Notes: generated by a model not told the origin, from the letters alone. 25,410 bases of DNA from a virus (UHGV-0121369), one strand, 5' to 3'; shown: positions 1,725 to 5,091, numbered from the stretch's first letter. Numbers and translations are program-made.

Positions 1725-1826
1725 TGCACTCCCAAAGTGGCTACGACATCACTCGCTGTTTCGCGGGTACTGCCTTTGCTGGATATAGCCCGGTGCTCCC
1801 TGGCCTGCGGTAAAATGGTGTGCGTT

Positions 1827-2507
1827 TCATTTCCACTGCTCCCCGAACGTGAATCCGATCTCCGCCAGCGCCTCGTCCATCTTCTCGATGAACTCCGGCA
1901 CCATTTCGTTGAAATCGGTCATGTACTGCGGATCCCGTTCAACAACGACATGGTGAATGCCTTCGCGTTTCATGCGCGGGTCGTAGTTGGCAAAGAACCA
2001 GGCGTCTTTTCCGGTTACCCACATGCTGTACTGCACCTGGGCCATGTACTCGGACTTAATGGCTTCGAAACCGCCGAGGCGGAATTTCATAAAGTCGCGG
2101 GAGGTGAACGGGCATTTCAATTCGAGGCCGAAATCGTTACTGCAAAGGCCGTCAGGGGAGCATGCAGTGCGCATGCTCTCGTCACGGAACAGGATCGGAG
2201 ACTCCGTGACTTTCACGTCAGTAGTGAACTCGAAGAGGGTGCGGGCGTCTTCCTCGTACTGCTTGCCCCAGGCCAGAGCCTTGGCGTTAACCTCTGGCGC
2301 GACGCCGGTGCATACCTCGGCGAGTAGGGTGTGGAAGTAGGACATCTTCATGCCCGTCCATTTGGTGCCGGAGCGCGGCTTGGAAATGACGTTGTGCACT
2401 TCAGAGGCGGTGATTACGCCGAGGCGCAGCCGGTGCCACGCCTCATCGCCCTGTTGGATAGTGGTTACATCGATGCCGGTCCTGGCAAGGATAATTTCTG
2501 GTGTCAT
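1827..2507 (-). CDS. exo: Lambda-type 5'-3' exonuclease (Red-alpha / Exo)
   Basis: 226 aa, near-identical along its length to lambda Exo as I recall it ([14 protein letters not shown]..., [53 protein letters not shown], ...GEQWK); ATGA overlap with the upstream annealase gene. Confidence 0.93.
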
Positions 2508-3421
2508 GCTGCCGCCTTCTGTCTGAGGAACCCGAGAGCCTTAACACCTTCCGGCTCTGTTAGGTCGGCAGGCTGCGTGATAGGGCGTTTGAAAATGCGT
2601 GAGCAGAGAGGGAGAAGATCGGCGTCCCATGTCTTATCCAGAGAAATGAGCAGGTCGTTAATCTCTTTCTGCGTGGTTTCGCTAAGCGGCGTTATATCTC
2701 GCTCTGGCTGCCGTTCTGCAGCAAAGTTGATACCTTCTTCACCCTCGGTGTTAACGTGGTCGATAGCGGCATCCAGGCGTTCACGGCGCGGCCAGTATTT
2801 TGCTGCCTGCTTCACGACCGTCTTGAGGATCATCTGCTCTTCATCTGTTACCCATGGGCACTTCTTACTGTTGTCAGATTTGTACTTCTTCCATGCTTCA
2901 GACCGGTCACGGATGGAGTGGATGGCATCGATGCGCATCGTATGGGTGAGGTAATCACCATCGTCAGTTTTTACCGTTACATACGCGCCTACGATGTCCC
3001 CGCGCTGCTCTTCAGTATCGAAGTCGTTGTAGATGTGGATCGGCGGCTTATCGAGCCCCTCGCGGCGGAACTGGTCGTTTCTGCGAACAATTGCCGACTG
3101 ACACCACTTAATGGCGCCAGACTGCTGCGCGATGTGCATCAGGCCCATGTAACTGATGTCGAGGCAAATAGCCCCTTTACGCGGAACCAGGTAAGCCAGC
3201 TTCTGAGCTGGGTTTAGCGAAATACCGATAGCCGCAACGTTGATGATTGCGTTCTGCGTGCTGGTCTGGTTCTGGAATGCAACTTTGGCGAGATAGTCGT
3301 TGTTCTGAAATAACTGGATGGCGAACTGGCTTTCTTTCGCCCACACCATCCGCTCGTCAGTGGCCGCCTTAATGAAAAGCGGCTCCTGTTGTTTGACGAA
3401 ATCAACAAGGGTTAAGCTCAT
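2504..3421 (-). CDS. Single-strand annealing protein, RecT-family core with lambda-Bet-like C-terminal tail
   Basis: 305 aa. N-terminal about 230 aa has RecT-family motifs ([64 protein letters not shown]). C-terminal about 75 aa ([44 protein letters not shown]...[14 protein letters not shown]) closely matches the lambda Bet C-terminus as recalled. SD aaggaggga before the ATG. Confidence 0.85.
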
Positions 3422-3430
3422 AGTCCCTCC

Positions 3431-3712
3431 TTAAAATGGGCAGGTTGGATGAAGGCGATCCCACTCTTCTTCGGCGCGGTCGTAACAGATTCGTGTGACA
3501 TAGTCGTTATAGGCTTCCTCTGCCTTTTCACCGACTAGTGCCATTTGCGCTTCTTTTGGAAGAAACAGGCTACTCATTTGCAGAGCATATTTCGGGAACA
3601 TGGCGATCAGTTCTTTCGCTCGGTCGTCGATCCACTTCTCTTTCTCGTCGGTGAGTTGCTGTTCAACCCAGCGCCGATCTTCGATGCGGTCGTAAGTGAG
3701 GAATGCGTTCAT
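3431..3712 (-). CDS. Hypothetical phage protein
   Basis: 93-aa acidic ORF immediately upstream of the annealase in the same operon; no recognised family (not lambda Gam by eye). Confidence 0.5.
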   Translation of the reverse strand: MNAFLTYDRIEDRRWVEQQLTDEKEKWIDDRAKELIAMFPKYALQMSSLFLPKEAQMALVGEKAEEAYNDYVTRICYDRAEEEWDRLHPTCPF

Positions 3713-3719
3713 GGTTGCC

Positions 3720-4811
3720 TCAGTAATGAATTTTCGCGCAGGGGATCAGGTCATCTTTCAGTGCGGTGAGCACTTCGATAGCCTGTTCGCGGGTTAAACT
3801 GGTGTGGCTGGTGAGCGCGTTAACGATGTTGGTGCCGACCGTCTTGCGGTGCTTCACGTCAGCTTCGCGCTTTGCCTGCTCTTCGGCTTTGCGCTTCTCT
3901 TCGGCCAAGCGATTTTTTTCTTTTGCTTCAGCCTCGCGAAGAATGCGGTCATTCTCTTCTTGCTGCTTTTGAATAGCCTCAGCGTTAATTAGGAGTTGTT
4001 TGATCTGCGCAATTGCTTGCTGCTTGGCATTTTCAGCTGCACCCATCAATGAGCCAAAGCGCCCATCGATAGGCCACGCCTCAGCTTCAGCAAGCGTTTC
4101 TTTAATGCACTGGATTGTTCCACCCTGGCGAACACCTAAACGACCCGACTGAGCGATGATCACCTGCTGCTGAATTCCGCTGATCTCACTAAGTGCATCC
4201 TGGTGCTGCTGGCGTTCACGGTTGGCTTTTTCTTCAGCATCACGAGTGGCTTTTTCAGCGGCTTCTCGCTGGATCTTTTCATCACGTTCACGCTGAGCCT
4301 GTTCCTCCAGGCGGCGCCGCTCTTCGCGGTCGCGGTCGAAATCCTTATTCATCAGCAGAGCCATTTCGTGGTCCGCTTCGAACTTGTCCGCCAACTCCTG
4401 ATCTAACTTGATGTTCATTTCCAGCGCTTCGGCGTGCAGTGCGTTCATGGCTTCTTCAGCCTTAATGCGTTCCTGCTCGGCTTCCCATTCGGTGAGTGGG
4501 CGGCGGGTCGCATCGCGCAGCTCGTCACATGCATCAACGAACCGCTTAATTTCAGCCTCGGCAGGGCGTACAGCCTCTTTCAGGCGCTTCAGGTACTCAC
4601 GGCCCGGCTTTTCAATCGCCGTCTTACTGCGGGATACCTGCGCCGCCAGAGAGGCGACACGGTCACGGCCTTTCTTCGTAGAAAGGTCAGGCACTTCGTT
4701 TACTGCCTGGCGGATCTGCTCAAGGAAAGCGTCAAGGCCACCGGCGATATATAGTGCTGGTGCCTGATCTGGCTTGATTTCGATGACAGTTAAGTCCGTT
4801 ACTTCGCTCAT
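3720..4811 (-). CDS. Charged coiled-coil protein of unknown function
   Basis: Open frame 3720..4925; a strong SD (AGGAGAAACC) precedes the internal ATG at 4811 (MSEVTDLTVIEIK...), which I take as the start. Long E/K/R/A-rich central region (RERDEKIQREAAEKATRDAEEKANRERQQHQ...). Confidence 0.6.
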   Translation of the reverse strand: MSEVTDLTVIEIKPDQAPALYIAGGLDAFLEQIRQAVNEVPDLSTKKGRDRVASLAAQVSRSKTAIEKPGREYLKRLKEAVRPAEAEIKRFVDACDELRDATRRPLTEWEAEQERIKAEEAMNALHAEALEMNIKLDQELADKFEADHEMALLMNKDFDRDREERRRLEEQAQRERDEKIQREAAEKATRDAEEKANRERQQHQDALSEISGIQQQVIIAQSGRLGVRQGGTIQCIKETLAEAEAWPIDGRFGSLMGAAENAKQQAIAQIKQLLINAEAIQKQQEENDRILREAEAKEKNRLAEEKRKAEEQAKREADVKHRKTVGTNIVNALTSHTSLTREQAIEVLTALKDDLIPCAKIHY

Positions 4812-4881
4812 GGTTTCTCCTGAAATTTGGATGTGCAGATCACGCCCGCGTAATGCCAGGCCGAACGGTTGAATAGGGTGG

Positions 4882-5091
4882 TTAGTGCTGGATAGGGTTG
4901 CCGTGACCGTCAAGAAGGACGTCAATCACGCAGTCACTGAGTCGGATTATTTCTGCGTCAGTGTGCAGGTATACCCATTTGCGCTCCTGAATGACTGCTG
5001 AGACGCGATATGTGCGGCCTTCATGCAATGCCATCATGCCGGGCGTGACGCACTGGCGAATGAGCGGGGTGGTGCCGTAGTGGTTGATCAT
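4882..5091 (-). CDS. Hypothetical small phage protein
   Basis: 69-aa ORF; its ATG overlaps the stop of the upstream small ORF (ATGA). Confidence 0.45.
   Translation of the reverse strand: MINHYGTTPLIRQCVTPGMMALHEGRTYRVSAVIQERKWVYLHTDAEIIRLSDCVIDVLLDGHGNPIQH

Follow-up and report, generated by a model that had tools for sequence, protein, structure and literature searches.

How did an annealase whose larger part belongs with RecT come to be paired with an exonuclease of the lambda Red type, and which part of the protein goes with that partner? The question is raised by two overlapping genes in a viral DNA of 25,410 nucleotides (UHGV-0121369; the whole of this stretch is called the window here). 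A preliminary description of the locus had read the annealase as a chimera, with a RecT-family core fused to a lambda Bet-like C-terminal tail, and had suggested that module shuffling exchanged the annealing core while the tail stayed matched to the neighboring exonuclease. The analysis reported here favors, with a probability of roughly 0.85, the reading that this phi80-type Rec SSAP is a mosaic of a RecT-clade core, a linker and a Bet-type helical bundle, and that its tail is a portable partner-adaptor cassette (Table 1).

Table 1. Features of the gamL-rec-exo region of the window, with positions counted from the first letter of the window and the evidence for each.
Feature	Position	Strand	Evidence
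gamL, phi80-type host-nuclease (RecBCD) inhibitor	3431..3712	-	NF033500 phi80_GamL, 148 bits; directly upstream, same operon
Annealase gene (phi80 'rec' / RecT-type SSAP)	2504..3421	-	ORF and translation, 305 aa
RecT-clade annealing core, codons 1-223	2753..3421	-	Pfam RecT, TIGR00616, phrog_148, AlphaFold
Inter-domain linker with mosaic joint, codons 224-247	2681..2752	-	Low pLDDT and identity switch
Linker motif AERQPERD, codons 235-242	2696..2719	-	Codon alignment; common to window, phi80 and lambda
Bet-type C-terminal three-helix bundle, codons 248-305	2507..2680	-	66% identity to Bet CTD, model superposition
Contiguous lambda DNA homology, tail and all of exo	1827..2721	-	blastn
Lambda-type 5'-3' exonuclease gene	1827..2507	-	226 aa, Pfam YqaJ, ATGA-coupled
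Exo helix E, codons 88-96	2220..2246	-	Surface binding Bet CTD in 6M9K

Taken as a whole, the window represents a phi80-like prophage or phage; its int/xis/DUF4060 segment is 99.9% identical to phi80, and it extends on to cos and terminase. The annealase gene begins with an ATG that is placed just behind the sequence AAGGAGG, a good Shine-Dalgarno motif, and its TGA stop codon overlaps with the ATG start codon of exo as ATGA, an arrangement by which the exo gene is predicted to be translationally coupled to the annealase gene. The closest named counterpart, phi80 gp37 Rec, has the same length and 90% amino acid identity overall, rising to approximately 99% in the core, and phi80 shares with the window the gene order gamL-rec-exo as well as the ATGA overlap with exo. 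The inhibitor encoded upstream agrees with phi80 GamL in 90 of 93 residues; in the NCBIfam profile test it was not homologous to Gam, which holds the upstream position in lambda, and was of the phi80 GamL type instead, described in the phi80 annotation as a functional analogue of lambda Gam.

The gene is widespread. An identical protein is deposited at NCBI as 'recombinase RecT [Escherichia coli]' and occurs on 33 contigs (90%-identity cluster, n=994); gp45 of Enterobacter phage CobraSix is 98% identical to the window annealase, and close homologs are distributed across Salmonella, Enterobacter, Klebsiella, Citrobacter, Cronobacter and others. Of 5,426 complete E. coli genomes, 72 carry the recT-exo pair; DH5alpha, DH10B and NEB strains are among them, and their copies (89.7% nucleotide identity) presumably represent the phi80 remnant of these strains. 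The same chimeric architecture is seen in the complete genomes of the phages phi80, CobraSix, ENT47670, Midgardsormr38 and PA2. Recurrence on this scale, in contigs, five complete phage genomes and complete bacterial genomes alike, leaves practically no likelihood that the chimera is an artefact of assembly or annotation. The novelty implied by the preliminary description was overstated, as the protein is a known phi80-type Rec, and its exact sequence was already in the NCBI database.

The N-terminal region is indeed of the RecT type and unlike Bet, as had been proposed from the sequence. The Pfam profile RecT (PF03837) matched residues 31-213 with 103.9 bits (cut-off 24), and the NCBIfam profile TIGR00616 ('rect') gave 56.6 bits against a cut-off of 52.65, whereas TIGR01913 ('bet_lambda'), which lambda Bet matches with 169.5 bits, did not match the window protein. 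The PHROG families divide the two proteins in the same way, with the window core in phrog_148 and lambda Bet in phrog_252; in the NCBIfam/PHROG subfamily test, TIGR01913 and phrog_252 were the only families matched by lambda Bet. BLASTP detected no similarity between the N-terminal domain of Bet (residues 1-179) and the first ~228 residues of the window annealase. Since Bet and the window protein are both members of PF03837, the distinction between RecT and Bet is one of subfamily and not of family; the earlier wording, by which the core is RecT-family and not Bet-family, holds at the subfamily level but not at the Pfam level. Rac RecT is 29% identical to the window core over 164 amino acids (E 1e-15), and the Rac RecT equivalog profile NF007351 reached 70.2 of the 296 bits required; the core belongs to a RecT subclade other than that of Rac RecT.

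The structural model agrees with this placement. The AlphaFold model of the window annealase, built on 20 homologs, has a mean pLDDT of 81.7, with values of ~85 in the core, and Foldseek retrieved Listeria RecT as the top PDB fold match of the core (7ub2_E; E 1.1e-6, TM 0.61, 208 columns); RAD52 folds matched more weakly, and no Red-beta N-terminal-domain entries occurred among the best 50 PDB matches listed. By model and fold search together, the core has a RecT/Rad52-like annealing fold. Its subfamily and fold are shared with Rac RecT and with the RecT of Listeria phage A118 (7UB2); in contrast to the window annealase with its Bet-type CTD and its Exo, Rac RecT is paired with RecE and ends in a short acidic tail. 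By analogy, the core would bind ssDNA and pair complementary strands, and the putative recombinase activity can be related to the phi80 ortholog, whose core is 99% identical. This ortholog, 'RecT-phi80', has been studied as a recombinase with 32% identity to Red-beta, and deletion of phi80 recT lowers phage-prophage recombination (De Paepe 2014; PMC3945230).

The C-terminal part of the annealase, by contrast with the core, is Bet-like: BLASTP pairs residues 229-304 with lambda Bet 180-255 in a gapless alignment of 66% identity (E 1e-31). The likeness perceived earlier in the last ~75 residues was therefore real, but its extent required correction; similarity to Bet begins at codon ~234 (AAERQPERD), and the common tail comprises 72 amino acids. 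The tail matched the Bet CTD chains of the PDB entries 8tfu (E 2.6e-27) and 6m9k (E 7e-21), and its model, with predicted helices at residues 248-260, 265-277 and 289-304, was superimposed by Foldseek on 6m9k, 8tfu and 8tg7 with 0.4-0.8 Å rmsd (TM 0.88-0.95 for 6m9k and 8tg7); the window tail and the lambda Bet tail also match the same PHROG fragments, 12233 and 17377. Domain assignment thus divides the protein between Listeria RecT 7UB2 for the core and the Bet CTD 6M9K, at ~0.5 Å, for the tail. In comparison to lambda Red-beta, the C-terminal linker motif and the three-helix bundle correspond, the pocket for Exo and SSB is kept, and the downstream partner is again an Exo with overlapping stop and start codons; in contrast, the core is of another subfamily, and the window annealase stops 6 residues short of the end of Bet.

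The Bet C-terminal domain was matched neither by Pfam-A nor by NCBIfam, which is likely the reason that annotation pipelines call the whole protein just 'RecT'. When the tail profile was searched against 1.84 billion representative proteins, only 40 clusters were obtained at E <= 0.001, and the domain family is therefore narrow. A word-indexed search with the tail profile yielded nothing longer than 144 amino acids; the fragments included some Gam-Bet deletion fusions and one of the ERF type (P0063).

The transition from one part to the other is sharp. With blastn, positions 2721..1827 of the window aligned to lambda 32257..31348 (75.2% identity over 914 nt), and the core had no match in lambda; the homology starts at annealase codon 234, equivalent to bet codon 185, and continues unbroken through the tail and exo. 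Calculated over 30-nt segments, identity to lambda remains at the random level of ~0.3 up to codon ~230 and is 0.6-0.8 from ~233 onward. Since the switch from random identity to 60-77% falls within codons 230-235, the joint lies in the low-pLDDT linker, which according to the model is probably disordered (pLDDT <50 at residues 234-240).

The abruptness of this joint bears on the possibility that no horizontal exchange took place, and that the tail is ancestral to all RecT/Bet annealases and evolved more slowly than the core. The membership of Bet and RecT cores in a single Pfam family would be consistent with such a history, and so would the diverged tails on distant RecT cores (Yersinia, Vibrio and Aeromonas phages; P0085, P0091). 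Yet 75% nucleotide identity to lambda that sets in at codon 234, directly behind an unalignable core, is not the pattern of a slowly evolving ancestral domain; the tail is in fact the fastest-evolving segment in the comparison of window and phi80 (dN 0.29, vs. 0.002 in the core), and Rac RecT is without a Bet-type tail. Near-identical cores that bear quite different tail alleles, and a non-homologous tail on the same core clade in HK140-type phages (see below), argue in the same direction, and descent without exchange appears very improbable.

The comparison with phi80 reveals another mosaic boundary, which coincides with the lambda joint. In phi80, the tail (codons ~243-290) together with the first ~35-40 codons of exo constitutes a different, anciently diverged allele, and the tails of window and phi80 share 61% amino acid identity. 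Synonymous divergence (dS) between the two amounts to 0.20 in the core, 1.64 in the tail, 1.82 in exo codons 1-40 and 0.38 in the rest of exo. AERQPERD is directly preceded by the lambda/RecT-core joint and directly followed by the start of the divergence between the window and phi80 alleles; from its position in the alignment, this motif could possibly be a microhomology joint. In the tail, dS is saturated and dN/dS amounts to 0.18, values that indicate old alleles acquired through recombination and not rapid evolution in place; positive selection on the divergent tail is ruled out by the same values. Behind exo, phi80 has 1.34 kb (gp35 and a damL pseudogene) that the window is without.

Similar mosaics are found among the relatives in IMG/VR. 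In 80 of these, cores that are 99-100% identical to the window core are combined with tails of 61-96% identity, some of them no closer than 61-68%, and tail, core and exo correlate just weakly in pairwise identity (r 0.19-0.37); some loci combine a core of 99%, a tail of 64% and an exo of 97-100% identity. On the Bet side, cores that are 96-97% identical to lambda carry tails just 67-72% identical to the lambda CTD. The uneven identities and weak correlations indicate that the tail is a cassette reassorting against both of its neighbors. Co-inheritance of tail alleles with exo alleles, as expected under co-adaptation of alleles, is ruled out by these correlations and by the discordant loci, and a signal of co-adaptation at the allele level is absent; the matching of tail and exonuclease is one of tail family to exonuclease family, within which alleles reassort independently. 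The Bet and RecT lineages each include members with diverged tails, and transfer could have proceeded in either direction. Some loci carry an inserted ORF between recT and exo, with a weak HTH match in Pfam and identified as an HNH endonuclease by PHROGs; its role as a determinant of the tail allele was unsupported, as the insertion is seen with both tail allele classes.

The exonuclease had been described as near-identical to lambda Exo; with 84% amino acid and ~75% nucleotide identity, it is better called closely related. The catalytic and DNA-handling residues that were checked (R28, R45, L78, D119, E129, K131) are conserved, so that annealase and YqaJ exonuclease, adjacent and co-oriented, form a gene pair of the lambda Red type with intact catalytic residues. 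In lambda, Bet residues L223, I227, F249 and L250 make up a pocket for residues T90, L91, F94 and T95 in helix E of Exo, and the complex is lost when L223, F249, L91 or F94 are mutated (Caldwell 2019; PMC6393309). The surface on which this interaction depends is retained on both sides in the window: L272, I276, F298, L299, Q301 and K302 of the annealase are identical to Bet L223, I227, F249, L250, Q252 and K253, and T90, L91, F94 and T95 of the exonuclease are the lambda residues. Among 79 RecT-core annealases (in Bet numbering), F249 is conserved in 100%, L250 in 99% and I227 in 99%, with L or V at L223 and K or R at K253; in 78 related exonucleases the corresponding values are 97% for L91, 100% for F94 and 99% for T95. 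As a caveat, the Bet CTD pocket also binds SSB, and its conservation alone does not single out Exo as the ligand. No binding or recombination assay for the window protein, or for any protein with a RecT core and a Bet-type tail, was found in the literature consulted.

The same residues argue against the view that the tail is an accessory DNA-binding domain of the helix-turn-helix type and not a protein-protein adaptor. Bet-CTD-like domains in annealases of Firmicutes have been read as DNA-binding HTH domains (Steczkiewicz 2021; PMC8093625); the likeness of the window tail to Bet is, however, not remote, since it shares 66% identity with a domain of which crystal structures in complex with Exo and in complex with the SSB peptide have been solved, and its contact residues are conserved here. 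An HTH function in place of a partner-binding one would thus be highly improbable.

In the distribution of the tail, the downstream partner goes with tail type and not with core type. Bet-type tails were found on four types of core, namely Bet, phi80-type RecT, ERF (P0079 and P0063) and a core without a Pfam match (P0096), and every readable neighborhood contained a YqaJ/lambda-Exo gene downstream; nucleases of this family are the next genes after P0063 (locus L008) and P0096 (locus L089), and the contig of P0079 ends before the next gene. Exo likewise follows the Bet-type tail in the reference phages PA2, Midgardsormr38, ENT47670, Yersinia X1, Vibrio 1.198.B and Aeromonas vB_AsaM-56, whose RecT cores are 52-81% identical to the window; their tails range from 71% identity down to matches recognized by profile only (E 1e-6 to 1e-10), the more diverged ones being those on the RecT cores of the Yersinia, Vibrio and Aeromonas phages. 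The converse arrangement is represented by RecT proteins of the HK140/HK639/mEpX1 type. Their cores belong to the same RecT clade (57-59% identity), and homology stops at the motif RLDxAIxxLN-EEG, as in the window; unlike the window protein, the HK140/HK639-type RecT continues into an unrelated tail of ~85 amino acids (Bet-tail HMM, E about 0.3-0.4). HK140 and HK639 have no exonuclease, and their next gene encodes a 160-aa Sipho_Gp157 protein (PF05565; 'Mu Gam-like' in RefSeq). Aeromonas phage phiA005 combines a core of the same RecT clade with the HK140-type tail, no exo and Sipho_Gp157 as the next gene, and in Pantoea phage PdC23 the HK140-type tail is attached to an ERF core, again without exo, and followed by an HNH gene and then Gp157.

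A census of IMG/VR loci gave the same division. In the 80 loci with a Bet-type tail, Exo was located downstream in all, save one whose contig breaks off behind an HNH insertion, and Gp157 in none; in the 80 loci with an HK140-type tail, Gp157 was located downstream in all and Exo in none. Mixed combinations of tail and partner were absent from these 160 loci, which were fetched with one tail as query for each set (out of 546 + 372 matches) and, as close relatives within two lineages, are not independent of each other. Independent support comes from the repetition of the pattern across core families and host genera, and the co-occurrence of tail and exo persists where 200-620 nt have been inserted between annealase and exonuclease genes. 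Together with the sharp crossover, the domain assignment and the conserved interface residues, the presence of this tail on several cores with its exonuclease partner sustains the suggestion of module shuffling from which the analysis set out. Edno5, for which a RecE partner of this annealase type has been reported and which would be expected to represent a third tail type, was absent from the taxonomy and from the matches. The RecE/RecT pair of HK225, which is related to part of the window, is of the Gifsy type with another core and was uninformative.

An alternative account of this distribution is that the tail was kept mainly for the binding of host SSB and for lagging-strand targeting, and that its association with exo reflects the co-transfer of adjacent DNA. 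The tail matches Bet CTD structures that contain the SSB C-terminal peptide (8tfu, 8tg7), the CTD is also required for ssDNA recombination, a role independent of Exo (Caldwell 2019, PMC6393309; Subramaniam 2016), and the reassortment of tail and exo alleles would be consistent with mere adjacency. However, HK140 and HK639 infect E. coli and therefore encounter the same SSB; their annealases, with a core of the same clade and no exo, carry another tail nonetheless, which this account leaves unexplained. The pairing of tail and exo, moreover, holds on four core types and extends to phages of Vibrio, Aeromonas and Yersinia, it outlasts the insertions between the genes, and helix E of Exo is conserved along with the pocket. 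SSB binding as the main reason for the retention of the tail is thus rather unlikely; binding of SSB and binding of Exo are not mutually exclusive, and as joint functions of the tail they are compatible.

Under the partner-adaptor reading, the RecT-type core (residues 1-~223) would bind ssDNA and anneal complementary strands, and a flexible linker (~224-247) would join it to the three-helix bundle at residues 248-305. By homology with 6M9K, the pocket formed by L272, I276, F298 and L299 is predicted to clamp helix E of each subunit of the Exo trimer; the tail would tether the core to the trimer and allow its loading on the nascent 3' overhang, as in the Exo-tethered loading model that has been proposed for lambda (PMC6393309; PMC11611040). 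The same pocket could alternatively accommodate the C-terminal tail of host SSB, by homology with 8TFU/8TG7, with a possible hand-off to SSB. GamL, Rec and Exo would then constitute a Red-like gamL-rec-exo module of a phi80-like prophage, and recombination has probably placed the tail cassette on several unrelated annealase cores.

The gene and the general idea of shuffling are already known. Zheng et al. 2025 list phi80 Rec as 'SAP sequence type 4', and reports of 2021 (PMC8093625) and 2025 had already pointed to the shuffling of partner-interaction or Bet-CTD-like domains between annealases; the former study observed a C-terminal domain with remote similarity to 6m9k and to ParD in several distinct families of annealases, and suggested domain shuffling (Steczkiewicz 2021). 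On the other hand, the Bet CTD has been described as having no significant sequence homologs (Caldwell 2019; PMC6393309), and a structural review of 2023 considered the use of a Bet-like CTD by RecT as unknown (PMC11611040). The mapping of the joint, the distribution over four core types and the rule that links tail and partner were not found stated in the literature consulted. As a gene, the window annealase is unremarkable: this recombinase is common in prophages and present even in standard cloning strains. Its value is that of a natural experiment, which provides a computational answer to the gap named in the 2023 review (PMC11611040).

The rule has practical uses in the annotation of annealases and in the design of recombineering pairs by tail grafting, and the HK140-type tail with Sipho_Gp157 emerges as a candidate second adaptor. 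A wider generalization is offered tentatively, at somewhat less than even odds: phage annealase C-termini could represent a limited repertoire of interchangeable 'partner-address' cassettes, which would recombine at the linker regardless of the core to which they are attached, with the Bet-type tail addressing YqaJ/lambda-Exo and the HK140-type tail, for which no function has been described, addressing Sipho_Gp157. HNH homing-endonuclease genes, which recur exactly at the junction of annealase and partner, may help to drive such exchange. If the generalization is true, it would imply a previously unrecognized physical complex of annealase and Gp157, the partner of an annealase would be predictable from its tail, and tail grafting would yield new annealase-exonuclease pairs for dsDNA recombineering.

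The C-terminal domain of lambda Bet escapes two profile databases, Pfam-A (E <= 1) and NCBIfam (E <= 0.01): no match was obtained, be it in window positions 2504..2737 or at the C-terminus of lambda Bet itself, and this is one likely cause of such proteins being annotated as 'RecT' alone. The structure and partners of this domain are known, despite the missing match. The Bet-type tail is also carried by other annealase cores, including ERF-family annealases (protein P0079) and the 241-aa protein P0096, whose core is without a Pfam match and whose family, phrog_7838, is labelled 'exonuclease'; at L008 (ERF core) and L089 (P0096), a YqaJ exonuclease gene lies directly downstream of the gene with the Bet-type tail, and the P0096 neighborhood also has a downstream SSB gene. 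The contig with P0079 stops short of an identifiable next gene. In three short E. coli proteins (P0024, P0040 and P0052), the Bet C-terminal domain is joined directly to a foreign N-terminus, either approximately 38 residues of lambda Gam or unrelated sequence (PF00521 in P0052); these fusions are probably remnants left by deletions within cryptic prophages, or miscalled ORFs.

Full-length copies of the recT-exo pair, with 89.7% nucleotide identity to the window, were found in the common E. coli cloning strains DH5alpha, DH10B, NEB 5-alpha, NEB 10-beta and HST04; presumably, they derive from the phi80 remnant of these strains. Between its exo and DUF4060 genes, phi80 has approximately 1.34 kb that the window lacks, comprising gp35 and the damL methylase pseudogene; the sequences flanking this site share 90% and 99.9% identity with phi80. 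The Glu/Lys/Arg-rich ORF at the agt position is another mosaic gene, since residues 39-233 are 92% identical to residues 1-195 of phi80 Agt and its C-terminal half has no match in phi80 DNA. As the match to phrog_1376 begins only at residue 39, the true start is probably the ATG near position 4811, not the TTG at 4925.

Coordinates of the features compared
Feature	Location	Strand	Remark
Site of the missing phi80 segment	window 1785..1793
ORF, 401 aa	window 3720..4925	-	lies where phi80 has agt ('anti-toxin for Gam', Mog)
Bet-type tail, ERF core	L008:1113..2214
Bet-type tail, P0096	L089:3001..4544
Alternative tail	L090:2492..3869 (HK140)		also L091 (HK639), L096 (Aeromonas phiA005), L095 (PdC23), L098-L177
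HNH gene between recT and exo	L017:3231..3851		also L009, L022, L026, L031, L040, L072, L078-L080
HNH gene between Erf and Gp157 genes	L095:2647..3111		Pantoea phage PdC23
recT-exo pair in E. coli genomes	H139-H146		e.g., NZ_CP025520 (DH5alpha), NC_010473 (DH10B)

An alternative annealase tail of approximately 85 aa (motif ...MDELKxxFxxAYxMTxGxxLQxNVQxxY...), for which Pfam returned no matches, occurs on RecT and ERF cores alike. The gene following these annealases encodes Sipho_Gp157 (PF05565) in all 80 IMG/VR loci and in four reference phages, a constancy that suggests a previously undescribed interaction between annealase and Gp157. Among 80 relatives, 11-13 have a gene for a 206-aa HNH endonuclease (phrog_374, E 7e-49) precisely at the recT/exo junction, with the N-terminus of exo replaced; 13 further relatives carry a 200-290-nt insert at the same site. 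Homing endonucleases seem to target the junction between annealase and partner genes repeatedly.
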